Source: a bacterium
GTDB lineage: Bacteria > Zhuqueibacterota > Zhuqueibacteria > Oceanimicrobiales > Oceanimicrobiaceae
Length of the DNA stretch: 23,397 bases
Assembly: GCA_046757025.1 (NCBI GenBank)
Contig: JBHHXN010000077.1
Location: forward strand, 1-23,397
Direction of reading: 5' to 3'
The notes under the pieces were generated by a model. The model was not told the DNA's origin, did no database searches, and was given only the letters and a program-made list of their open reading frames with translations. The translations under genes and the position numbers were made by a program. Shown here one piece after another: positions 316 through 15,699 of this stretch (the first letter of the stretch is position 1; every line of letters starts with the position of its first letter).

Positions 316-843
316 ATGAAAGTATGGAAAACCTTTGAACACAATATCATAACCCACAGCGCTGCGCATCACCTCATGACCATTGCCAGCTTACTCAACA
401 AAAATGGTTATGCCCGGGTGACGGACGTAGCCAAGAGTCTGGAAATCACCAGAGGCAGCGCTTCCATCACTTTGAAGGCACTCAAAGAAAAGGGCTACGT
501 GCAGGAAGATGAAAATAAATTCTTGAGATTATCTGACAAAGGAGCGTCGCTCTGCCATTCGATAAAATCCATGCGCATCATTCTCATCAAGTTCATGAAA
601 GACATCCTCAACGTGGACACGGAACAGGCTGAAATCGATGCCTGTAAAATCGAGCATCTGCTGAGCGCCGAAACCGGAGACAAACTGCTGAATTTTTTGA
701 AATTTTTGTTTTCCGAAGACAAACGCGTCAAAGCGTTCTTAAATGCTTACTGGTCAAATGAAAACGAATGCCAGGGACTGATCGAAGAGTGCCAGGTGTG
801 TGAATCCGAGTGTTTGCTGAATGAGAGCACTCACTCATCCTAA
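316..843 (+). CDS. DtxR/MntR-family metal-dependent transcriptional repressor with C-terminal 4-Cys tail
   Basis: wHTH ARVTDVAKSLEITRGSASITLKALKEKGYV; dimerisation motif AEIDACKIEHLLS; tail CQGLIEECQVCESEC. Confidence 0.9.
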   Translation: MKVWKTFEHNIITHSAAHHLMTIASLLNKNGYARVTDVAKSLEITRGSASITLKALKEKGYVQEDENKFLRLSDKGASLCHSIKSMRIILIKFMKDILNVDTEQAEIDACKIEHLLSAETGDKLLNFLKFLFSEDKRVKAFLNAYWSNENECQGLIEECQVCESECLLNESTHSS

Positions 844-858
844 AATTTGATGGACATT

Positions 859-990
859 AAAAAACGCGCTGCCGAGGCTCTGGTAAAGTATCGGGCAACG
901 CGTTTGAAAGCGCGAAAAAAGATGTAACATACTCAATCGGATGAGTATGTTTAATCGACTCTCATAACAGGAGTTGATGCATCCTTTTTC
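859..990 (-). ncRNA. candidate sRNA with own promoter and intrinsic terminator
   Basis: minus-strand TTGACT-17-TATCTT at 1025-997; perfect 10-bp hairpin 926-935/942-951; GC-rich stem 862-875/891-905 ending in U6 on the minus strand. Confidence 0.4.
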
Positions 991-1148
991 TTTTAAAAGA
1001 TAGACAATTTTAAATTGAAAGTCAAGCGGCTCCAACAGAATTTAACGCATGGGAAACCGAATTGGGTGTGGCAAAAACAAATTTGGTGATTTTAGTGACA
1101 TCCAAAAACACAGTAAATTTATCACCTATTTTATGGGGAGAAAGTATT

Positions 1149-1343
1149 ATGAGTGTCAACCAGATGGATTGCATCGCCTGTGGTCGTAACAGCGAGCAGG
1201 TGCCTTTGTTGAATTTACAATTCCGCGGTATGAAATTCTTTATATGTCCGCAGCATTTACCGGTTTTGATACACGACCCCTCTCAGTTGATCGGTAAATT
1301 GCCCGGCGCTGAAGATCTTTCACCGGCTGAACACCGCGACTGA
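1149..1343 (+). CDS. small (64 aa) putative metal-binding protein
   Basis: GGGGAG RBS at 1135-1140 before ATG 1149 (preferred to ORF-track start 1062); CIAC...CPQH motifs. Confidence 0.75.
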   Translation: MSVNQMDCIACGRNSEQVPLLNLQFRGMKFFICPQHLPVLIHDPSQLIGKLPGAEDLSPAEHRD

Positions 1344-1351
1344 ATAGATTC

Positions 1352-1508
1352 TTAACCTGAATTATTCATTCAAAAGAGAGTGAACGTGTTGGGTGTTCAG
1401 CCTTTAGGCTGCCAGAACACGCTGAAGCGTGAACACCGAACGGGCTCTTCAAAACTCAGTTTTTCGATTTTGAGCGTAAAATCCTGGTTTGTGAATAATC
1501 CAAGTTAA
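1352..1508. mobile_element. MITE-like element containing a REP-like doublet
   Basis: terminal IR TTAACCTGAATTATTCA / TGAATAATCCAAGTTAA (15/17); inverted pair GGTGTTCAGCCTTTAGGCTG (1392-1411) and CACGCTGAAGCGTGAACACC (1418-1437). Confidence 0.6.
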
Positions 1509-1547
1509 ATAAAAAATCACCTTTAACAAAAAAAGGAAGGTGTAAAG

Positions 1548-2849
1548 ATGAACAAATCTATTTTAATTTCTCTAATCCCCTTATTACTATGGCCCTTTGT
1601 TGATTTTGGCTTCGCACAACAATCAACTAAACAAGACACCCTCAAAGAATTGATGCGGCGCATGGAAATTCTAACCGAAGAAATTGAAAAAGTAAAATTG
1701 GGCGAAGTAGCTGAACCTGAGTATGAAAGTAAATATGGCATGGGGCCGGCAGCTTCACGGGTATATCATCTTTCCCGTCCAGGCGTTTCCATCGCTGGTT
1801 ACGGAGAAATCGTGTATAACAATTTTTCCGATGAAAGGGATAACAGCAGCGCTTCCGGGCTGACAAACCAGATCGATTTCCTGCGGCACATCACCTATTT
1901 TGGATTTCGATTTAACGACCGGCTGCTGTTCAATTCGGAAATCGAATTTGAGCACGCAAAAACCGCAGACGGGGCGCCCGGTGAAGTGGCCATCGAATTT
2001 GGTTACATCGAAGCCATGCTCCACCCTGCCGTTAATTTGCGGGCCGGTATGGTTTTAGTGCCGGTAGGCATCATCAACGAACTGCATGAACCACCGACTT
2101 TTCACGGTGCGCTGCGCCCGGAAACCACAAAACGAATCGTTCCGACTACCTGGCGCGCCAACGGCTTCGGTCTGGTTGGCGCCACCCAAAACGGTATCGG
2201 TTACAAGATTTACCTGGTGGAGAGTCTCAACGCTGCCAGGTTTTCTTCAAACGGTATCCGAAGCGGTCGCCAGAGCGGCGCCAAAGCCATTGCTGAAGAT
2301 CTGGCAGTTACTGGCCGATTGGAATTTACCGGCATCCCGGGCTTAAATCTTGGCGGGTCTTTCTTTGTGGGGAACACGGCGCAGGCTTTAACAGACAGCA
2401 GTGGCCGAGACTTCGATGCCCGCCTGGATCTCTTTGCTCTGCATTTCATCTTTGCCAGAAAAGGCTTTGAAATTCGCGGTCTGTTCGCACAATCAAAACT
2501 GAACGACGTTATTCAATTAAACAACGCTTTAGGCCTGGTTGGAAGCAACAGCATCGGCGAAAAACAGAACGGTTATTATGTCACCGTAGCGTATGATATC
2601 ATGCCGCTGATTTCCAAGGGAACTTCGAATTATCTGGCGCCATTTGTACAGTTTGAACAATTCGATACCCAAAAAGACATCCCAACGGGCTTTGCGAAAA
2701 ATCTGGCGCGCAAACGCAGCAATTTGACCCTGGGCTTGACTTTCAAACCGCATCCCAATGTGGCATTCAAGTTCGATTACATCAACCGCGACAGCGACGC
2801 TAACACCGCCATCGACCAATTTAACTTAGCGGTGAATTATTTATTTTAA
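1548..2849 (+). CDS. outer-membrane beta-barrel/porin-like protein
   Basis: signal peptide, short coiled coil, amphipathic beta strands, FNSEIEFEH and INELHEPPTF motifs, C-terminal YLF; RBS AGGAAGG. Confidence 0.75.
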   Translation: MNKSILISLIPLLLWPFVDFGFAQQSTKQDTLKELMRRMEILTEEIEKVKLGEVAEPEYESKYGMGPAASRVYHLSRPGVSIAGYGEIVYNNFSDERDNSSASGLTNQIDFLRHITYFGFRFNDRLLFNSEIEFEHAKTADGAPGEVAIEFGYIEAMLHPAVNLRAGMVLVPVGIINELHEPPTFHGALRPETTKRIVPTTWRANGFGLVGATQNGIGYKIYLVESLNAARFSSNGIRSGRQSGAKAIAEDLAVTGRLEFTGIPGLNLGGSFFVGNTAQALTDSSGRDFDARLDLFALHFIFARKGFEIRGLFAQSKLNDVIQLNNALGLVGSNSIGEKQNGYYVTVAYDIMPLISKGTSNYLAPFVQFEQFDTQKDIPTGFAKNLARKRSNLTLGLTFKPHPNVAFKFDYINRDSDANTAIDQFNLAVNYLF

Positions 2850-2856
2850 AAATGAA

Positions 2857-2965
2857 TTCGTGTCCATCCGTAACGAGCCTTTTTTTGTCATGCCCGCAAT
2901 CTTCAAATCAGGTAGGCAAGAGATTGCATACGGACTCGGGAATGACGATTACGGATGGACACGAA
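2857..2965. mobile_element. MITE family A, copy 1
   Basis: perfect 17-bp terminal IR TTCGTGTCCATCCGTAA / TTACGGATGGACACGAA; homologous in inverted orientation to 9279-9410. Confidence 0.75.
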
Positions 2966-2993
2966 AATCACTGAAAAATTCTCAGGTAAAAAA

Positions 2994-3545
2994 ATGCAGA
3001 AGTGTTTCAAAATAACTTTCATCATTTTAATAACTTTAATATATATTTCTTCCATTCATGGTCAATTGCTGAAAACCCAGAAGGAAGCGCTGCAGCAAGC
3101 TTTCCCGGAAAATGCCGAAGTGACTCGAAAAGTGCTTTTTCTGACTGACAAACAGGTAGAAAAGATCCAAAAATTAGCCCGGGTAAAAATAGAATCAAAA
3201 ATGCTAACCTATTATATTGGCAGCAAAAATGACACAATTATTGGTTATGCTTTTTTTGCAAGGGACATCGTGCGTACGAAATTAGCTGCCTTTCTGGTGG
3301 TAGTCAATCCCGACAGCTCTGTCAAGTATATCGACATTTTAGCGTTTCACGAGCCTTTTGATTATCTGCCAACCGCAAACTGGCTAAAACTGTTTGATAG
3401 CAAAAAGCTGAAATCCAGCCTCTGGCCAAATCGGGATATTCATGGTATCAGCGGCGCGACTTTAACGGTTCGAACCCTGACACTGGGCGTGAGAAAAATA
3501 TTAGCCGCATTTCAAATTGCTGTTACAAAGGAGGATCCAAAGTGA
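2994..3545 (+). CDS. exported FMN-binding domain protein (flavinylation target)
   Basis: N-terminal signal/TM; GISGATLT matches the [S/T]GA[S/T] flavinylation motif; AFHEPFDYLP; ORF-track ATG 2955 lies inside the MITE IR so 2994 preferred. Confidence 0.8.
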   Translation: MQKCFKITFIILITLIYISSIHGQLLKTQKEALQQAFPENAEVTRKVLFLTDKQVEKIQKLARVKIESKMLTYYIGSKNDTIIGYAFFARDIVRTKLAAFLVVVNPDSSVKYIDILAFHEPFDYLPTANWLKLFDSKKLKSSLWPNRDIHGISGATLTVRTLTLGVRKILAAFQIAVTKEDPK

Positions 3546-4084
3546 AATACCTGTTAAACGGAAGTTTTCAGAACCAGAATTTGATGAAACTGACGCTGAT
3601 ATTTACACTGATATTTCTGACAGGATTCGTGGCGACAAATTTCGCGCTCTATTTTTCCAAAATGAGCGTTACCGCCGAATCGGTGCGAAATTACTATTTG
3701 GGTTCGGAAGAAGCCTACACCATGCCGCGCACCTATCAATCCATGCTGGAAGTTACGCACTCGCATTTGCCGATGATGGCGCTGGTGGTTTTGCTTTTGA
3801 CGCATTTGCTGATCTTTGCCCCGTACAAACTCAACATCAAAGTCGCGATCATTATCAGCGGATTTTCACTGGCGCTGCTGAACGAATCCGCAGGCTGGCT
3901 CATTCGATTTGTGAGCCCGGAATTGGCCTGGCTAAAGGTCACGACCTTTTTGGGCCTGCAGGCGATTCTGGGATTTCTCATCGTGGCCCTGTCGGTTTTT
4001 TTAATTAAAGGTCGCGCTTTTACACCGTTTATGCCGTCGACTCATCTGAGACAAATGCCCGTAACGAAATCTGAAACTAAATAG
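3542..4084 (+). CDS. multi-pass membrane protein with His-rich helix, possibly heme b-binding
   Basis: GTG start overlaps upstream TGA, RBS GGAGG; about 4 hydrophobic segments; LEVTHSHLPMMALVVLLLTHLL. Confidence 0.75.
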   Translation: MKYLLNGSFQNQNLMKLTLIFTLIFLTGFVATNFALYFSKMSVTAESVRNYYLGSEEAYTMPRTYQSMLEVTHSHLPMMALVVLLLTHLLIFAPYKLNIKVAIIISGFSLALLNESAGWLIRFVSPELAWLKVTTFLGLQAILGFLIVALSVFLIKGRAFTPFMPSTHLRQMPVTKSETK

Positions 4085-4095
4085 CCGCAAATAAC

Positions 4096-6078
4096 ATGAA
4101 ACAAAAACTATTTTATCTTTTGATATTTTCGCCAATTTTGGTAACGATCTTTTTCCTCATTCAGTCCATTTCTCCGAATGAGATTGAGACACGCTCTGCT
4201 GAGCAGAAAAACACCAACCACCTCGAACCAGAACGATTGATATTTTTATTGCAGTACATCGCGGCGGATTATGATGGGGCCGTGAAAAACCGCGAAGTGA
4301 GCAACCCTTACGAATATCAGGAAATGTTGGAATTCATTGAAACTGTGATAAACGGTTATAAAGCTTACCAACAGATAAATGACCACCTGAGTCACCTGGC
4401 CAGTTTGCAAAAATTACAACGATCCATTGAAAAAAAAGCAGACTTCCTTCAGGTGCAGCGCCAGGCCAATGATCTGATAAAAGTTATTTCTGCCGAGTTG
4501 CAAGTGGTACCGTTTCCCCATAAAATGATCGATTTGAACGAAGGCAAAAAATTATATGCCAGTGCGTGTGCACCCTGCCACGGTTTGACCGGCGATGGCC
4601 GCGGCTTTGCAGCGGATAAGCAGAAGCCCAAACCGAACGATTTTCAAAATCCCGAATATATGAACACGCTCACGCCCTATCAGATTTTCAACGCGGTTAC
4701 GTTTGGAGTCACGGGCACCAGCATGCCTTCGTACGAGATTGCCTGTACCGATGCTCAGCGGTGGAATTTGGCTTTTCATGTCATGACCTTACGGGCTGAT
4801 TTCAATCCGGCTCAACAAATACGGAACCCCAAATTGACGGTGAAGGATCTGGCGACTCAATCAAATGCGGATTTGGTAGATCAGCTCTCTCTACAGGTTG
4901 GGGATCTACAAAATGCGTATCAGCTCGTAGATTATTTACGCCTCCATCCACCGCAATTGAGTGTGCAAGAACATCTGCAATTCACACAGCAGCGATTAAG
5001 TAAAAGCTTGGCCGCATTCAAGAAGGGCGAAACTGAACAAGCTGTGCGTTTGACTTTGGCAGCCTACCTCGAGGGGATCGAGCCGGTGGAACCCATGCTG
5101 GATCCGGCGTTTATCAGCCAGCTCGAAACCCAATTAGGCAGCTATCGCCACGCCCTTAAAACCCACGAGTCCGTTTATCAAATCGAAAAACGTTTTCAAG
5201 CGGTGAGCAATTTGTTGAACAATACGCCGGCGGCTGGGCGGTCATCAAGGCTGCAATGGGGATTCACGCTCATTCAGTCGTTGACAATTGTTCTCCGAGA
5301 AGGCGTGGAAGCGGCCCTGATCATCGCGCTGATTTTAACGTATCTCACCGCGCTGAATTTTACGCATTTGCGAAAATACGTTTTGGCTGGCGCGATTGCA
5401 GGTGTGGCCGCAGGATTAATCACCTGGTTTCTATCCAAACTATTTCTTAAAATTTCCCCGCTACAGCAGGGAGCACTGGAAGGTTTGACTTCTCTGTTAG
5501 CCGCGCTGGTGTTATTTTCCATCAGTTTCTGGCTGATTCATAAAGTGGACCTGGAGCGGTGGAAAAAATATATCAAGGTAAAAGCGGAACGAGCCCTGGT
5601 AAGCGGCAGCGGTTTTGCGCTGTCCCTGGTGGCGTTTGTGGCAGTTTACCGAGAGGCGTTTGAAACCGTGCTGTTTTATCAAGCACTGTGGCAAAAAAGT
5701 CTGGTGGTACAATCCGGCCTATTCCTTGGCTTTGCCGTGGGAGTGCTTTTGTTAACCCTGATCATTTTCTTGATCTTTAAAATTGGCTATAAAATTCCCC
5801 TCAAACCTTTTTTCGGCGTCAGCGGCGTTTTGCTGGCTATTTTAGCATTTGTTTTTACGGGTTACGGTGTGCGGGAATTACAGCAAATTGGTTTTCTGAA
5901 TGAAACGCTTCTGCCCTGGAATTTCAATTTGGATTTACTGGAAATCCATGCTACTATGGAAGGCATTTTACTGCAAATGGGCCTATTAATTTCTTTTATG
6001 ATGGGATGGTTTTCAATTTACGTGCAAAAAATCCGCTTAGCCAACCAGGTCAAACTCGATATGGCCCCGGCAAAATGA
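4096..6078 (+). CDS. cytochrome c / FTR1-family iron permease fusion (PbrT-like architecture)
   Basis: CAPCH heme c motif (4567-4581), GTSMP distal Met, two RExxE motifs (REGVE, REAFE), multi-TM C-terminal half. Confidence 0.9.
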   Translation: MKQKLFYLLIFSPILVTIFFLIQSISPNEIETRSAEQKNTNHLEPERLIFLLQYIAADYDGAVKNREVSNPYEYQEMLEFIETVINGYKAYQQINDHLSHLASLQKLQRSIEKKADFLQVQRQANDLIKVISAELQVVPFPHKMIDLNEGKKLYASACAPCHGLTGDGRGFAADKQKPKPNDFQNPEYMNTLTPYQIFNAVTFGVTGTSMPSYEIACTDAQRWNLAFHVMTLRADFNPAQQIRNPKLTVKDLATQSNADLVDQLSLQVGDLQNAYQLVDYLRLHPPQLSVQEHLQFTQQRLSKSLAAFKKGETEQAVRLTLAAYLEGIEPVEPMLDPAFISQLETQLGSYRHALKTHESVYQIEKRFQAVSNLLNNTPAAGRSSRLQWGFTLIQSLTIVLREGVEAALIIALILTYLTALNFTHLRKYVLAGAIAGVAAGLITWFLSKLFLKISPLQQGALEGLTSLLAALVLFSISFWLIHKVDLERWKKYIKVKAERALVSGSGFALSLVAFVAVYREAFETVLFYQALWQKSLVVQSGLFLGFAVGVLLLTLIIFLIFKIGYKIPLKPFFGVSGVLLAILAFVFTGYGVRELQQIGFLNETLLPWNFNLDLLEIHATMEGILLQMGLLISFMMGWFSIYVQKIRLANQVKLDMAPAK

Positions 6079-6141: not shown

Positions 6142-8112
6142 TCAGACGTTTGAAATATCGTATTCTTTCATTTTGCGCCACAGAGTGGTTCGGCCAATGC
6201 CCAGTACTTTTGCCACCAGGTCGTAGTTCCAGTTGTGTACCTCCAGAGCCTCGGCGATATGAATTTTTTCCAGCTCTTTGAGTGTCAAAGTCTGTGATCG
6301 ATTGCGACTCAACGCCACAGCACGGCTGTTAACCACAGTGGGCGGCAGGTCTTCTCTGGTTAAGATTTTTTGAGTGGAAAGCGCCATGGCACGTTCGATG
6401 ACATTTTCCAGCTCCCGCACGTTGCCAGGCCAGGGGTATTTGCGCAGAAGCCGGGCAGCGTCGTCGTTCAATCCGTACACGGCTTTGTTGACTTTACTGG
6501 CATATTTCTTGATGAAAAACTCTGCCAGTGGAAGGATGTCTTCTGGCCGATCTTTTAGCGGTGGAATGGTAATCTGGATGACATTTAAACGATAATACAA
6601 GTCCTGTCGAAACGTGCCCTCTTCCACCATTTTTTCGAGATTTTTATTGGTAGCCGTGATGAGCCGTACATCCAGTTTGATTATCTGGTTGCTGCCAACC
6701 GGTTTAATTTCACCTTCCTGCAAAAAACGCAGCAATTTGACCTGCATGGCCAGGGAGGTTTCCCCGATCTCATCCAAAAAAATAGTGCCGTGATTGGCGG
6801 TTTCGAACAACCCTTTTTTGTTAGCAGTCGCCCCGGTAAAGGCTCCGCGCACGTGTCCGAACAGCTCGCTCTCTAACAAATTTTCGGGCATGGCGCCGCA
6901 GTTAACCACGATGAACGGATTGTCTGCACGAGTGCTGTGCTCATGAATGGCACACGCGACCATTTCTTTGCCGGTACCGCTCTCGCCATCGATGAGAACC
7001 GAAATATTGGTTTGAGCGATGCGGGCCACCAGCTCCAGAATTTTTTGCATGGATTCGCTTTTGCCGATAATATTTCCAAACCGATAGCGCTCATTGGACT
7101 GCACCCAGGAAATGAAATTCTGAATTTCCCGCTCCAGCAATTTGTCCACCACATCCGTGACTTTTTGATGCGCCTGCAAATTGGAATCAACGATTTTTTC
7201 CAGATCGCTTTTTTTGTAATAGTACATGTTGTAGATATTCAGACCGTTGCGTTTTTTGGTCTGTTCAGACAAAATTTCATCATAATACGAAACGTACAAA
7301 AACGGCGCATTTTTTCGCAGGTTCATCACTTTGACGATTTGCTCGTTATGGAAAACATTCTCGAAGTTTTCATCGAACAACAGCAACAGATCCACTTTCG
7401 GCATCACTTCATCCAGCCGGGAAACGGTGACTTTGGTTCCCCGGTACTGTTCACACAGTCGGTTGCCGCCGGTTTGGTCGAGATCCACAAAAATCAGCTC
7501 GCCAATATTTCTTTCATGCAATTTCTGAATAAATTTTTCACAGTCGGAATTGCGAGCCGCTATCAAGGCTTTGTTGTCCTGCAAATCGCCAAATATTTTC
7601 TGGGCTAAATCGGTGACCACCGTTTCTGGAGTGATGGCGTTTTTTTGCAGATTTAATTCGATTCTGACTTTTTCAGAAAGCCAAAGCCCCCGCTGATGCA
7701 GACGGCTAAAGTAGGCGCCGGTTGAACAAGCCTCCCGTGCTTCGGTTAATGCAGAATGGAATTCCGGTCCACGGTTATTGAATTCTCCTTTGCGGTTCAT
7801 GCCGATGGCTAATCTATAAAATTCTAAAATGGCGTCCGGCCCTTCCATTTTAAATTTCAGTTTTGCAATCGTGTCCTGACTAACATGCAGGTCCTTCTGC
7901 ACGAAATCGTAAAATGCCTTTTCCAGCGCGTCTCTCTTCTCTGTCACCGCAAAAACTTGTATCAAGCCCTCAGCTTGATACATGACAATTTCATCAAATA
8001 GTTTTATTGCAGAAATTTGATCGACAAATCTGGATGGCAAAGATGGCTTCTCGAGCACAACCTTTGGTTGATCTTTTTCTCTTAACTCGATTCCAAATGT
8101 AAAAATAGGCAT
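6142..8112 (-). CDS. sigma54-dependent enhancer-binding protein with N-terminal degenerate glutamyl-tRNA reductase (HemA)-like domain
   Basis: C-terminal: GESGTGKE, ESELFGH, GAFTGA, FLDEIGE, RQDLYYRL, WPGNVREL, Fis HTH. N-terminal ~336 aa collinear with HemA (LAQKIFGDL, RKNAPFL, DLEKIVDSNL...FISW) but lacking STCNR and GAGE. Confidence 0.85.
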   Translation of the reverse strand: MPIFTFGIELREKDQPKVVLEKPSLPSRFVDQISAIKLFDEIVMYQAEGLIQVFAVTEKRDALEKAFYDFVQKDLHVSQDTIAKLKFKMEGPDAILEFYRLAIGMNRKGEFNNRGPEFHSALTEAREACSTGAYFSRLHQRGLWLSEKVRIELNLQKNAITPETVVTDLAQKIFGDLQDNKALIAARNSDCEKFIQKLHERNIGELIFVDLDQTGGNRLCEQYRGTKVTVSRLDEVMPKVDLLLLFDENFENVFHNEQIVKVMNLRKNAPFLYVSYYDEILSEQTKKRNGLNIYNMYYYKKSDLEKIVDSNLQAHQKVTDVVDKLLEREIQNFISWVQSNERYRFGNIIGKSESMQKILELVARIAQTNISVLIDGESGTGKEMVACAIHEHSTRADNPFIVVNCGAMPENLLESELFGHVRGAFTGATANKKGLFETANHGTIFLDEIGETSLAMQVKLLRFLQEGEIKPVGSNQIIKLDVRLITATNKNLEKMVEEGTFRQDLYYRLNVIQITIPPLKDRPEDILPLAEFFIKKYASKVNKAVYGLNDDAARLLRKYPWPGNVRELENVIERAMALSTQKILTREDLPPTVVNSRAVALSRNRSQTLTLKELEKIHIAEALEVHNWNYDLVAKVLGIGRTTLWRKMKEYDISNV

Positions 8113-8118
8113 AACAGC

Positions 8119-8943
8119 TTACTGAAAATTATGAAATTTGGAAAAAAACAAATTGACGATGATGAACGAAAAAAGCAGCCAGTTAAAACCCACCACCGAT
8201 ATGACAGCCGCGCGACGCCCCTGCCACCCGATGGATTTGCGCGTGACAAAATGGGCCACGTAAATGGCCCAGGAAAAAATGACCGCAATCAATTTGGGAT
8301 CCCACGCCCAACTACCCTCCCAAACATTGATGCCCATGTAAAAACCCACTAAAATTCCCAGTGTCACCAGAACCAGCCCAATATTGACCGCGTGATTGCT
8401 GAGTTTGTCGATGAAATCGAGGGATGGCAGACGTTCAAAGAAAATGCCCAAATCCTTTGATTTCATCTCCCGCGCCAACAAAATGTACATGACGCTGGCA
8501 ATGAAAGAAATCGCAAATGCAGCGTACGCGGAAATTAAAACCACCACGTGCAGCTCGAACACAACATTGGTCAGCACATCGGCCAACGGCTTATCAATGT
8601 CGATAAAACCGCTGGAAATCGCATGTAAAATCAAAACAATCGGAATAAAGAAAACGCCCATTGTGCTCTCTTTTAAGCTGACTTCCAACGTCAAGTACAC
8701 CAGCACCGACAGCCAGGAGAAGGTCGTCAAAACCTGATATAAATCACCCACCGGTAAATGACCAAGCCGCAGACTGAGTAAAAGCAAATACAAAGAATGG
8801 AATAACACGGCGCTGCCCAGCCAAATTCGGATTTGTGACACCGACTGCTGTTCCTTTGCTGTGAAATACCGCAAGTAATAACCAAAACTCACCGCGTATA
8901 AAACAAAAATCAACCATCTAAGAAAAAACATGAGTTCTTTCAC
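8119..8943 (-). CDS. CcsA/HemX-like cytochrome c assembly family membrane protein
   Basis: about 8 TM helices, WWD-type motif WEGSWAWDPK, His residues (FELH, KFHNF), LPSLDFIDKL; position directly upstream of a hemA-like gene is the usual ccsA/hemX-hemA linkage. Confidence 0.85.
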   Translation of the reverse strand: MKELMFFLRWLIFVLYAVSFGYYLRYFTAKEQQSVSQIRIWLGSAVLFHSLYLLLLSLRLGHLPVGDLYQVLTTFSWLSVLVYLTLEVSLKESTMGVFFIPIVLILHAISSGFIDIDKPLADVLTNVVFELHVVVLISAYAAFAISFIASVMYILLAREMKSKDLGIFFERLPSLDFIDKLSNHAVNIGLVLVTLGILVGFYMGINVWEGSWAWDPKLIAVIFSWAIYVAHFVTRKSIGWQGRRAAVISVVGFNWLLFSFIIVNLFFSKFHNFQ

Positions 8944-8988: not shown

Positions 8989-9030
8989 TTTTCAATTTGA
9001 AAATTTAACACTTTCAATATTGAAAATCAA
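8989..9030 (-). promoter_or_regulatory. sigma70-type promoter for the ccsA-like gene overlapped by two palindromes
   Basis: minus-strand TTGATT (9030-9025)-17-TAAATT (9007-9002); TTTTCAA-T-TTGAAAA (8989-9003) and TTTCAATATTGAAA (9012-9025). Confidence 0.55.
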
Positions 9031-11981: not shown

Positions 11982-14201
11982 GTGAAAATCTTTTCCAACA
12001 TTAAAGGCGATATTATGGGGGGCATAACGACATCGGTGATAGCGCTGCCCCTGGCCATCGCCTTTGGTGTTGTGGCTTTCGCCCCTCTGGGCGAGGAGTA
12101 CATTGCCCAGGGTGCCCTGACCGGACTCTATGGCGTCATCGTGGCGGGGATTCTAACCAGCCTTTTCGGCGGCACGCCTGGACAAATTGCGGTGCCCACT
12201 GCGCCCATGTCGGTAATGGTCACCTCGATTATTGCCACGCTTTTGAAGGACCCGCAAATAGCCGCTATGAGGGATAATCAGGTAATGGTAATTCTGGTTT
12301 TGGTTTCCATGACGATCTTCATGGCGGGAGTGTTACAGCTCATCATGGGCGCGGTAGGCGGCGGTAAATTAGTCAAATTTATCCCTTACCCGGTTATCGC
12401 CGGCTTTATGAACGGCATCGCCATTATCATTTTTCTCGGGCAACTGCGGCCGTTGTTTGGCGTGGCGAAAGACACCAAATTGACTGCTCTTTTCCTGGGA
12501 CAGGCTGGCATTCGATATGAAACCCTCATTGTCGGAATGGTAACCATTCTCGCCATGATGTTCTCCAGGCGAATCATTAAAGCCATACCCGCCTCATTAG
12601 TCGGTCTGTTGTGCGGTGTGGCAGCTTACTTTTTCATCGGAAAAATATTCAATCCGACCCTTTTGCAAATGCAAGATAATCCGCTGATCATTGGCCACAT
12701 ACCAAGCGTCCTTCCGACGCCGAAGCAGGTGGTAAATTTCCTCAGTATCAGTGGCAGCATTCCTTTAAACAAATTGAGCAATTTAATTATCCCCGCGTTG
12801 ACTTTGAGTATTTTAGCGTCTATCGATACCTTGTTGACCTCTGTGGTGACCGACATGGTCACCAAATCCAAGCACAACAGCACGAAAGAACTGTTTGGTC
12901 AGGGCATCGGCAACATGGCTTCTGCCGCGTTCGGAGGCCTGCCGGTCGCCGGCTCCACGCTGGCCACCATGGTCAACGTCAACGCCGGCTCCCGCACTCC
13001 GCTGGGCGGCATTGTCAACAGCCTGACCGTCCTGTGCATCGTCCTGTTCATGGGCAGCCTGGTACAGTGGATTCCCATGGCCGTGCTCGCCGGAATTTTG
13101 CTGCTCACATCCATTTCCATGATCGAGTCTGAAAGCATCAACCTGTCGCTAAAAAAATCCGCTCTGGGAAATTTGTTAGTCATCGTGGCAGTTACCGTAA
13201 TAACCGTTGCCATCGATTTGATCATCGCGGTCATGATCGGATTGATCATCACGACTTTTTTGTTCATCAAAGAGCAGATCGGCAAATCCATCGTGCGCCG
13301 AATGTACACCGGCAATCTCGTGCACTCCAAAAAGATTCGAAGCCAGGAGGCGATGAATATTCTGGAACAAAAAGGCGACTTGATCAAAATCTATGAGCTC
13401 AACGGCTCGTTGTTTTTTGGCACCTGCGATAAACTGCTGGCTGAATTAGAAAAGGAGCTGGACAGTTTCAGCATCATTCTCGATTTCAAACGCGTGCACA
13501 CCATCGATTTGACCGGTGCGCAGCTTCTAAAACAAATCGTCGAAAGGGTAAAGGAAAAGGGCAACCATTTGCTCATCAGTTACCTGGACATGCCAGGCAA
13601 TGAAGACAAAGAGCGCATGGTGCGTCTCATGCGGGACGTCAGCGTCATCGAGGCCATCGGAACAGAATTCATTTTTCCCGACACCGACCAGGCGCAGGAA
13701 TGGGCAGAAGATGCGCTCATTCAAAGAGAGCTGGATGCCGCCAACATCCCCAAAGAAAGATTGACCGTAAAAAGCCTGAATGTATTCAAAGAATTGACTC
13801 GTGAACAATTGAAAATTGTCAAGAAACACATGCACCCCATGAAATATAAAAAGTCGGAGCTGGTTTTTAAAGAAGGCGATCCGGGCGATAAAATTTATTT
13901 CATTCTCTCAGGCGGAGTCAGTGTGCTGGCAAATATATCTGAGAACGGTCGCGCCCGCCGGCTGGCAACCTTCGGTGAGGGAGTGTTTTTTGGCGACATG
14001 GCGATTTTGGAAGAGCAGCCGCGTTCAGCATCAGTCCGGGCTGACTGCGATACCGAGCTTCTGTACATGACCGTCGATGATTTTCGCCATCTCGTTACCC
14101 ACGAGTCTTTGTTGGCTTCAAAAATGCTCCTGGGCATGGCCAGAGAATTGTCGTATCGCTTGCGCCTGACGACTATCGAAGTGCGGACGCTGGAAGAATA
14201 A
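11982..14201 (+). CDS. SulP/SLC26 anion transporter with STAS and cyclic-nucleotide-binding domains
   Basis: GDIMGGITTSVIALPLAIAFG, PYPVIAGFMNG, KELFGQGIGN; STAS NGSLFFG/IDLTG; cNMP FGDMAILEEQPRSASV; RBS GAGGAG. Confidence 0.92.
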   Translation: MKIFSNIKGDIMGGITTSVIALPLAIAFGVVAFAPLGEEYIAQGALTGLYGVIVAGILTSLFGGTPGQIAVPTAPMSVMVTSIIATLLKDPQIAAMRDNQVMVILVLVSMTIFMAGVLQLIMGAVGGGKLVKFIPYPVIAGFMNGIAIIIFLGQLRPLFGVAKDTKLTALFLGQAGIRYETLIVGMVTILAMMFSRRIIKAIPASLVGLLCGVAAYFFIGKIFNPTLLQMQDNPLIIGHIPSVLPTPKQVVNFLSISGSIPLNKLSNLIIPALTLSILASIDTLLTSVVTDMVTKSKHNSTKELFGQGIGNMASAAFGGLPVAGSTLATMVNVNAGSRTPLGGIVNSLTVLCIVLFMGSLVQWIPMAVLAGILLLTSISMIESESINLSLKKSALGNLLVIVAVTVITVAIDLIIAVMIGLIITTFLFIKEQIGKSIVRRMYTGNLVHSKKIRSQEAMNILEQKGDLIKIYELNGSLFFGTCDKLLAELEKELDSFSIILDFKRVHTIDLTGAQLLKQIVERVKEKGNHLLISYLDMPGNEDKERMVRLMRDVSVIEAIGTEFIFPDTDQAQEWAEDALIQRELDAANIPKERLTVKSLNVFKELTREQLKIVKKHMHPMKYKKSELVFKEGDPGDKIYFILSGGVSVLANISENGRARRLATFGEGVFFGDMAILEEQPRSASVRADCDTELLYMTVDDFRHLVTHESLLASKMLLGMARELSYRLRLTTIEVRTLEE

Positions 14202-14887: not shown

Positions 14888-15433
14888 TTGGATGACATTC
14901 TAAAAATTCTACTTGAAATTGTTTCAAAATTAGATACAATCCAGATACCATATTATGTCAGCGGCTCCATGGCAAGAAATCTGTACGCTGAACCGAGATT
15001 CACCAACGACATCGATATTGTAATTGAATTGCATCCAACACAAAGAGAAAAAATAGTAACCCTTTTTAAACAAGATTTTTATATCTCGGAGCAGCAAATG
15101 CAGGATGCCTTTGATAAAATAGGATTTTTTAACATAATTCATTTTGAAAAAAGCATCAAATGCGATTTTATTTTATGCAAATCTGATTCTTTCTCCAAAC
15201 AATGCTTTCAAAATCGAACCAAATCAATCATAGAAAACAAGGAAGTTTATTTCATTTCGAAAGAAGATTTGATTCTTCAAAAACTTCTCTGGCGCAAGGA
15301 AACTCTCTCAGAACAACAGCTAATGGATGTAAAAAGCGTCATTGAAAATCACCGCGAGGAATTAGATACTGAATATTTACTGGGATGGAGTCAAAACCTT
15401 AAAATTGAAAAGGACCTAAAAGATCTGTTATGA
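14888..15433 (+). CDS. nucleotidyltransferase-fold protein (DUF6036-like)
   Basis: YYVSGSMARNLYAEPRFTNDIDIVI (GS..DxD), EDLILQKL, QQLMDV, LDTEYLLGW; TTG start. Confidence 0.8.
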   Translation: MDDILKILLEIVSKLDTIQIPYYVSGSMARNLYAEPRFTNDIDIVIELHPTQREKIVTLFKQDFYISEQQMQDAFDKIGFFNIIHFEKSIKCDFILCKSDSFSKQCFQNRTKSIIENKEVYFISKEDLILQKLLWRKETLSEQQLMDVKSVIENHREELDTEYLLGWSQNLKIEKDLKDLL

Positions 15434-15699
15434 GCGATACAACTCCCGAAATTCGGGAAATGCTGGTTAAAAGATTTCGAGCCATGTCGGCCGAAGAGAA
15501 AATGAAAAAGACCAGCAACATGTTTGCCACCGCAAAAAAATTTGCTGAAATTGCGGTCAAGAGAAAAAATCCATCCCTGACGGGCGTCGATCTAAAAATG
15601 GCTATTTTTCGGTGGATTTATCAGAAAGAGTTAAGTACAGCAGAACTGGACAGGATTGAAAAGCGCATGCGGGAATTTTGCCAAAGCCACTTAAAATAG
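15430..15699 (+). CDS. small basic helical protein, partner of the nucleotidyltransferase
   Basis: ATGA overlap with upstream stop; MSDTTPE...RAMSAEEK N-terminus typical of partners of this nucleotidyltransferase group. Confidence 0.75.
   Translation: MSDTTPEIREMLVKRFRAMSAEEKMKKTSNMFATAKKFAEIAVKRKNPSLTGVDLKMAIFRWIYQKELSTAELDRIEKRMREFCQSHLK

Follow-up and report, generated by a model that had tools for sequence, protein, structure and literature searches.

A HemX-like membrane protein beside a pseudo-GluTR–sigma54 activator fusion: a predicted regulator of heme supply in uncultured bacteria of KSB1 and Calditrichota

In Bacillus subtilis and Staphylococcus aureus, the membrane protein HemX lowers the abundance of glutamyl-tRNA reductase (GluTR; HemA or GtrR) post-transcriptionally when heme is sufficient (PMC5801465, PMC10991733), and the gtrR transcript is reported to be unchanged (PMC10991733). 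Their genes are commonly neighbours: among 113 genomes, hemX adjoins gtrR in 106 (Choby et al. 2018, PMC5801465). The mechanism behind this effect on HemA has been an open question since 1994, and a 2024 review still calls it undiscovered (PMC10991733). Here we describe a relative of this pair on one whole contig of 23,397 nucleotides (C77), hereafter the window, from a genome of the phylum KSB1 (candidate division KSB1/Zhuqueibacter; genome G000, 5.96 Mb, 94.8% complete). On its minus strand a HemX-like gene is followed by a gene whose product joins a dead GluTR domain to a sigma54 activator. We propose, with a probability of about 0.65, that this fusion activates operons for heme supply, and that the HemX-like partner binds heme and shuts the activator off through the dead HemA domain.

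The likeness to HemX–HemA is close. In both cases an eight-helix PF01578 protein is encoded beside a gene for the GluTR fold and a link to heme is predicted, and plain hemX-hemA pairs in the same phyla are the evident ancestor of the HemX-like/fusion pair. The difference is that the partner here is dead and fused, whereas known HemX acts on enzyme abundance. The predicted output is transcription because the partner is fused to a sigma54 activator and, by analogy, the pair may work like HemX–HemA feedback converted to transcriptional control. PspF with PspA and PspBC, and NifA with NifL, are sigma54 enhancer-binding proteins that are regulated by protein partners. The fusion resembles them in having an AAA+ GAFTGA activator with a helix-turn-helix (HTH), upstream tandem sites and neither receiver domain nor kinase. 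Unlike them, it has a whole pseudo-enzyme rather than a REC, GAF or PAS domain as its input, its presumed partner itself sits in the membrane, and the operon encodes no soluble adaptor. The corynebacterial HrrSA and ChrSA systems also couple a membrane sensor to a transcription factor that controls hemA by heme (PMC10991733), but they use a kinase and phosphorylation, whereas the pair has no kinase, a sigma54 output and unrelated parts. Database names for the HemX-like and fusion proteins are generic, and no prior description of the pair was found in the open-access full-text literature. The pair is apparently a real, conserved and undescribed regulator of heme supply.

The gene pair and its origin

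Judged by its AAA+ motifs, its Fis-type HTH, the presence of rpoN in G000 and the predicted -24/-12 promoters described below, the fusion protein (656 aa; 6142..8112, minus strand, as for all coding features of the pair) is a sigma54 enhancer-binding protein. Pfam places Sigma54_activat at residues 348-514, followed by the AAA lid and by HTH_8 at 610-651. The activator domain and lid together (aa 348-598; 6319..7071) hold Walker A, GAFTGA (6829..6846), Walker B and the R-finger, and the HTH is encoded at 6160..6285. Walker A is kept in 54/55 fusions and GAFTGA in 50/55 (four loci are truncated), and all 51 complete fusions share the recognition helix I[GS]R[TA]TLWRK. None of the NCBIfam activator families reaches its cut-off on this protein.

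The input region is where the fusion departs from known activators. Its residues 1-343 (7084..8112) draw barely any Pfam signal, with Shikimate_DH below cut-off, and match the M. kandleri GluTR (PDB 1gpj) in phmmer at E 3e-4. The AlphaFold model of this region (pLDDT 84) has the GluTR fold, the top seven Foldseek matches all being GluTRs (best E 3.9e-16). Alignment with HemA runs from residue 1, through the catalytic and NADPH-binding domains, up to the helix at the entry to the dimerisation domain; this C-terminal domain is replaced by the AAA+ domain. The catalytic cysteine of STCNR is found in 0/55 fusion domains, the substrate-binding stretch S/G-E-x-Q-I-x-x-Q of GluTR is eroded, and the second glycine of the GxG NADPH loop persists in 9% of fusions versus 98% of HemA. 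By these residues the fusion is not a HemA: the GluTR fold is kept and catalysis is lost. No cysteine or histidine of the pseudo-GluTR domain reaches 50% conservation, a level attained only by M263, Y293 and Y298. In a FastTree tree of 148 rows a split separates the pseudo-GluTR domains from HemA; long-branch attraction may contribute to this split.

Two observations concern GluTR relatives more generally. A helix end reading ‘KIF’ (aa 172-174) appears as KIFG in 46/64 fusions and in all four HemX-adjacent HemAs, and is lost in 27/44 local HemAs; in sequences that are related, this is a lead only, and it may mark HemX contact. Protein P0087 (837 aa) is a catalytically intact HemA with extra fused domains, which from the look of the sequence may be two Lrp/AsnC-like siroheme decarboxylase domains.

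The partner gene (8119..8943) has a GTG start and encodes 274 amino acids. By its PF01578 match (E 1.8e-31) and eight helices the product is a HemX-like membrane protein, and we predict it to be the heme sensor. Its model (pLDDT 86) consists of eight long helices in the CcsA fold, and Foldseek aligns it to the CcsBA synthase of H. hepaticus (PDB 7s9y) with a TM score of 0.73 over the query. H132, H231 and H271 align to CcsBA H761, H858 and H897. H132 (8548..8550) and H271 (8131..8133), the two candidate outer-face heme ligands, are invariant in 56/56 fusion-linked homologues, as the intact histidines of an initial annotation of the window would suggest; H49 is kept in 52/56 and the transmembrane H231 in 43/56.

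In CcsBA the WWD domain is described as flanked by two periplasmic histidines, and synthase function as dependent on W828, A829, W833, K842 and E843 (PMC6299221). The HemX-like protein retains the D-x-K of the WWD loop, but only two of these five residues (W833 and K842) remain in it, and equivalents of W828 and E843 occur in 0/56 fusion-linked homologues. The initial annotation had read the WWD-type motif as intact, which is wrong if it is meant as a synthase site. ResB/CcsB (PF05140) was not found in the 94.8% complete genome, which encodes CcmC and two CcmF/NrfE-like proteins (System I). Because the WWD motif is degenerate, we do not consider the protein a cytochrome c synthase; the losses of W828 and E843 and the failure to find ResB argue against that role. 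Where the window’s gene adjoins a dead GluTR fusion, relatives that score 130-207 bits on the same profile adjoin live hemA.

The two genes are 6 bp apart (8113..8118), as first annotated, and are likely to be translationally coupled. The membrane gene lies 5' of the fusion at 25 of the first 26 loci, the remaining one being at a contig edge. In the reverse search, whose genome set partly overlaps, the fusion stands directly 3' of the membrane gene in 41/43 loci, the others being a contig end and an Acidobacteria hemX-hemA outgroup. All six fusion loci checked in the phylum Calditrichota have a hemX-like gene of their own. The linkage of the HemX-like gene to the fusion is obligate. Of the two products, the membrane protein is the better conserved, with a mean column identity of 68% versus 44% in the pseudo-enzyme. 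Two outcomes had been named in advance as fatal to the proposed pairing, namely fusions that usually occur without the ccsA-like gene and a membrane protein that is only a synthase; we found neither.

The fusion occurs in 18/20 genomes of the window’s family (a screen matched 19/20, of which the G002 match is a plain hemA), in 53/133 KSB1 genomes and, by open reading frame (ORF) length, in about 25/86 Calditrichota genomes. Single fusion records are labelled Kapaibacterium and Ignavibacteria, and by ORF length only the fusion is seemingly rare among 201 genomes of the latter record’s class. No relative was found on viral contigs.

The pair arose by duplication of hemX-hemA, an event that can be seen directly because intact hemX-hemA often coexists with the fusion in Calditrichota: 13/14 fusion-bearing genomes also hold the intact pair, so that the states before (hemX-hemA) and after (hemX-fusion) stand together in one genome. 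Plain hemX-hemA is found in 20/20 fusion-less Calditrichota, in the fusion-less KSB1 genomes G074, G081 and G082 and in one Acidobacteria record. This bears out the earlier suggestion of a duplicated and rewired pair. In KSB1 the live hemA has no hemX and the dead copy retains the hemX-like gene. The canonical hem operon of G000 is a hemA-C-D-E-N-H-Y-B-L operon on a separate contig (C156), with no ccsA or hemX 5' of it. The absence of hemB, hemC, hemD, hemL and ResB from the window was upheld by a domain scan.

One locus looks like decay or loss of the regulator. In G075 (L145 / L152:3189-4415, G075:C19), a HemX-like gene precedes a 76-aa fusion remnant, with what is left of the palindromes and a sigma54 element that falls one base short; the remnant is overlapped from the other side by another gene, presumably a Mg/Co transporter. 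Separately, a small Rieske-type ferredoxin gene lies directly 3' of the fusion in eight loci (L029, L034, L035, L036, L039-L042), the window not being among them.

Predicted operators and sigma54 promoters at heme operons

The predicted targets were identified by two elements: an operator TTTTCA-N3-TGAAAA, called tandem where two lie 20-22 bp apart, and a sigma54 -24/-12 element TGGCAY-N5-TTG. An operator pattern with a 4-base spacer fitted less well and was replaced by the N3 form. Across KSB1 we scanned the region upstream of hemA or, where a siroheme-synthase gene leads the operon, upstream of that gene, leaving out G006 and G090 (the region upstream of hemA is off the contig) and the second hemA of G046 (no motifs). 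The sigma54 element is present at 37/37 hem operons of fusion-bearing genomes, within 100 bp of the start in 35, and the palindrome at 35/37, in tandem at 30/37. Dinucleotide-shuffled controls gave 6.9% for the sigma54 element, 1.8% for the palindrome and 0.09% for the tandem. The patterns were drawn from 12 of these genomes; in the other 25 the counts are 25/25, 24/25 and 23/25, respectively. Among seven comparison loci without an intact fusion, the palindrome is found only in G075 and a sigma54-like site only in G120. G002, from the genus of the fusion-bearing G018, has hemA and lacks the fusion, the membrane partner and both motifs.

The association extends to a second phylum. With the patterns fixed on KSB1, the sigma54 element precedes hemA in 12/14 fusion-bearing Calditrichota versus 0/20 fusion-lacking ones, where the positives were set by ORF length (six fusion loci verified) and the negatives are 20 of 29 hemA-only genomes, one with only 83 bp upstream. 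The recognition helix of the fusion is conserved alongside the conserved operator.

The -12 base at the 37 predicted sigma54 promoters is A in 20, T in 12, C in 4 and G in 1. A strict GG-N10-GC scan missed the hemA promoters because this base is mostly A or T, and the rarity of the consensus C may tune basal activity. Rfam gave no match in the window, the hem operon or the receptor locus considered next.

Besides hemA, the elements mark operons for TonB-dependent receptors. The 5.96 Mb of G000 hold three tandem sites: at the pair’s own operon (8989-9025), at hemA and at a lipoprotein–TonB receptor operon on contig C120, where a sigma54 element lies 186 bp downstream of the tandem site. Six of seven receptor orthologues have both elements in the same place, and 0/23 paralogous receptor loci have this arrangement. 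The hemA dimer domain and hemC were not found in 14 fusion-bearing genomes (completeness 87-100%), and in 11 of these the elements lie 5' of a TonB-receptor operon, of the lipoprotein type in ten (one cut after the lipoprotein) and with HmuY in one. The elements also accompany receptor–HmuY operons in G119, G118 and G141; in G141 the pair is divergent from the TonB receptor–HmuY operon, with the elements in between. Target operons directly adjoin the pair in G041-G045, G039, G073, G048, G123 and G141.

From these patterns, we consider it very probable that the operons for heme synthesis and heme uptake have the fusion as their sigma54 activator. We are equally confident in the predicted mode of action, in which it would bind paired TTTTCA-N3-TGAAAA sites about 90-220 bp 5' of TGGCAY-N5-TTG and activate sigma54 transcription there. 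The predicted regulon of hem and TonB-receptor operons backs the heme role proposed in the initial annotation, which had overlooked these targets.

The receptor operon is of interest in itself. A lipoprotein, a TonB receptor and a membrane protein of about 240 aa form a conserved operon (L151:9126-12004, minus strand, on contig C120 of G000; also L184-L191 and L215-L219), a candidate for a new heme-uptake system without HmuY; in the Atlas, the regulon’s lipoprotein and membrane protein are listed only as ‘hypothetical protein’. Another locus of G141, a genome in which hemA was not found, has operator and sigma54 element 5' of a HemX-type gene that stands alone (L241:652-1470, minus strand, G141:C10).

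At the pair’s own operon, the predicted operator TTTTCAATTTGAAAA (8989..9003, no strand) lies 46-60 bp 5' of the hemX-like start and is likely autoregulatory, and a second palindrome TTTCAATATTGAAA (9012..9025, no strand) completes the tandem site; the first is the sole site in the window with at most one mismatch. By inspection, a sigma70-like TTGAAA-17-TATTAA overlaps the operator. Autorepression of this operon by the fusion in the window’s family is weakly suggested, because the promoter scan did not report the sigma70-like element.

Several results weigh against this regulon, or narrow it. Because the counts come from related, non-independent genomes, we claim no p-value. In Calditrichota the strict 15-bp operator is present in 5/14 fusion-bearing versus 1/20 fusion-lacking genomes, and the 13-bp core, found in tandem in 11/14 versus 0/20, was adopted after the strict result had been seen. 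An operator 5' of the pair’s own operon occurs in only 19/54 loci, mostly of one family. Both elements are absent from the receptor orthologue of G009 (1/7), three of the 14 hemA-less fusion genomes have no element match, and the best NCBIfam match of the lipoprotein-type receptor, TonB-hemin, falls below cut-off (190 versus 317 bits). A single exact palindrome with a sigma54 element is found in 41/53 fusion-bearing but also in 28/80 fusion-lacking KSB1 genomes; a reversed control pattern gave two matches. When 11 of the fusion-negative matches were inspected, nine lay before unrelated or unannotated genes, one had no downstream ORF in the stretch and one was G118, a 90% complete genome with the elements before TonB receptor–HmuY in which the pair was not found. 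Finally, G000 has 46 activator-like ORFs, one with the near-identical recognition helix LGIGRTTLYRK, so other activators may read similar sites.

In G041, G043 and G044 (L195, L196, L198), a second operator-like pair with a spacing of about 23 bp and a sigma54 element lie 5' of response-regulator, lytic transglycosylase and tatC genes. This pair may belong to another activator.

A proposed heme switch and its alternatives

The proposed mechanism takes the HemX-like protein as the heme input and inhibitor, for three reasons: GtrR is lowered by ancestral HemX under heme sufficiency, the targets are heme-supply genes, and conserved Cys or His residues are missing from the dead domain. With ample heme, the membrane protein would hold it between His132 and His271 and, so loaded, would grip the pseudo-GluTR domain by its conserved cytoplasmic loops RLPSL and WQGRR. 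The gripped activator would be either sequestered or sent for turnover, much as HemA is lowered by ancestral HemX. Under heme scarcity, the activator would be freed and the synthesis and uptake operons would be switched on.

The loops are candidate contacts to the pseudo-enzyme on the basis of conservation. Invariant residues of the membrane protein are grouped in predicted cytoplasmic loops (E87, E159, F168, R171-L175 and R235-G242; topology inferred from CcsA). We think the odds are slightly better than even that the pair is a kinase-free transmembrane system, in which a dead enzyme is kept as a docking handle on a sigma54 ATPase and membrane-bound heme gates the regulon. Against such a switch, heme binding is unproven even for canonical HemX, and direct HemX–GtrR contact is described as not established and few HemX regions as predicted to be cytoplasmic (PMC5801465).

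An alternative accepts the regulon and places the sensor elsewhere: the pseudo-GluTR domain itself would sense a soluble signal such as free heme, glutamyl-tRNA or real HemA, and the membrane protein would be only a co-expressed heme exporter or chaperone that makes no direct contact. GluTRs of Salmonella and S. aureus are reported to bind heme (PMC5801465, PMC10991733), and the kept CcsA transport fold and the transmembrane histidine of 43/56 homologues would suit an exporter. However, the pseudo-GluTR domain conserves no Cys or His at the 50% level, and the substrate residues and dimerisation domain are lost. Sensing of HemA itself is disfavoured by the persistence of the pair where hemA was not found, and in KSB1 the membrane gene stayed with the dead copy rather than with live hemA. 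We regard this explanation as unlikely.

Quite improbable, in our view, is the same pair and contact with the opposite sign, whereby heme at the outer face would activate the fusion and induce uptake when heme is available. Substrate-induced uptake systems exist, the invariant histidines face outward by homology to CcsBA, and where hemA is missing the targets are uptake operons. Counter to this, the same elements stand before the biosynthesis operons of 37 genomes, at which heme as an inducer would create a positive feedback, and ancestral HemX is described as a negative factor (PMC5801465).

It is highly improbable that the palindromes and sigma54 promoters serve another activator and that the fusion has other targets. 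The many activator-like ORFs of G000, with their one near-identical helix, and the pattern matches in fusion-lacking genomes speak for such an activator. On the other side, the elements at hem operons track the fusion in two phyla, they flank the pair’s own operon, target operons lie directly beside the pair in the ten genomes named above, and the recognition helix is conserved as much as the operator. Scarcely credible, and largely refuted, is the idea that the membrane protein is an ordinary System II synthase for the neighbouring cytochrome c/FTR1 protein with the fusion a chance neighbour: the PF01578 match, a TIGR03144 score below cut-off (129.5 versus 187.6 bits) and the adjacent cytochrome c domain favour it, against the missing W828 and E843 equivalents, ResB not found while CcmC and the CcmF/NrfE-like genes are present, and a fusion that is almost always adjacent where cytochrome c/FTR1 rarely is.

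If the proposed heme switch is correct, HemX would be a receptor for heme with direct recognition of the GluTR fold, and the heme-supply regulon would flip from synthesis to uptake in lineages without hem genes. From the chimera one would expect the action of HemX on the GluTR fold to require no catalysis. The chimera singles out two invariant histidines and a pair of cytoplasmic loops, and would offer a transcriptional read-out for HemX activity in a laboratory strain. The pseudo-GluTR would also be an undescribed input domain for sigma54 activators, at the head of a predicted sigma54-controlled heme regulon in two little-studied phyla.

Neighbouring genes in the window

An iron operon (316-6078, plus strand) runs towards the pair. 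It encodes a DtxR/MntR-like repressor, a 93-aa Cys-containing ORF, a 433-aa ORF with no Pfam match, an FMN_bind protein, a 180-aa membrane protein and a cytochrome c–FTR1 fusion, the last (4096-6078, plus strand) being convergent on the pseudo-GluTR fusion. The initial annotation had made this convergence part of the signalling proposal. The convergence stands and its regulatory meaning does not, as neither operator nor sigma54 element was found at 1-315 or 843-1547 of the window; we therefore rejected regulation of the iron operon by the fusion. The cytochrome c/FTR1 gene adjoins the pair in only 3/26 loci. Homologous iron operons, of which some have feoB instead, diverge from hemA in G004, G010 and G011 and lie next to the pair in G010, G013 and G018; because of this, iron uptake can be said to cluster with heme loci in the window’s family.

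Farther along the plus strand, a SulP-STAS-cNMP-binding protein is encoded at 11982-14201, and in ten loci a homologue is found close to the pair or to the hem operon. A nucleotidyltransferase-like ORF with a small downstream partner (14888-15699, plus strand) is possibly a toxin–antitoxin-like pair.

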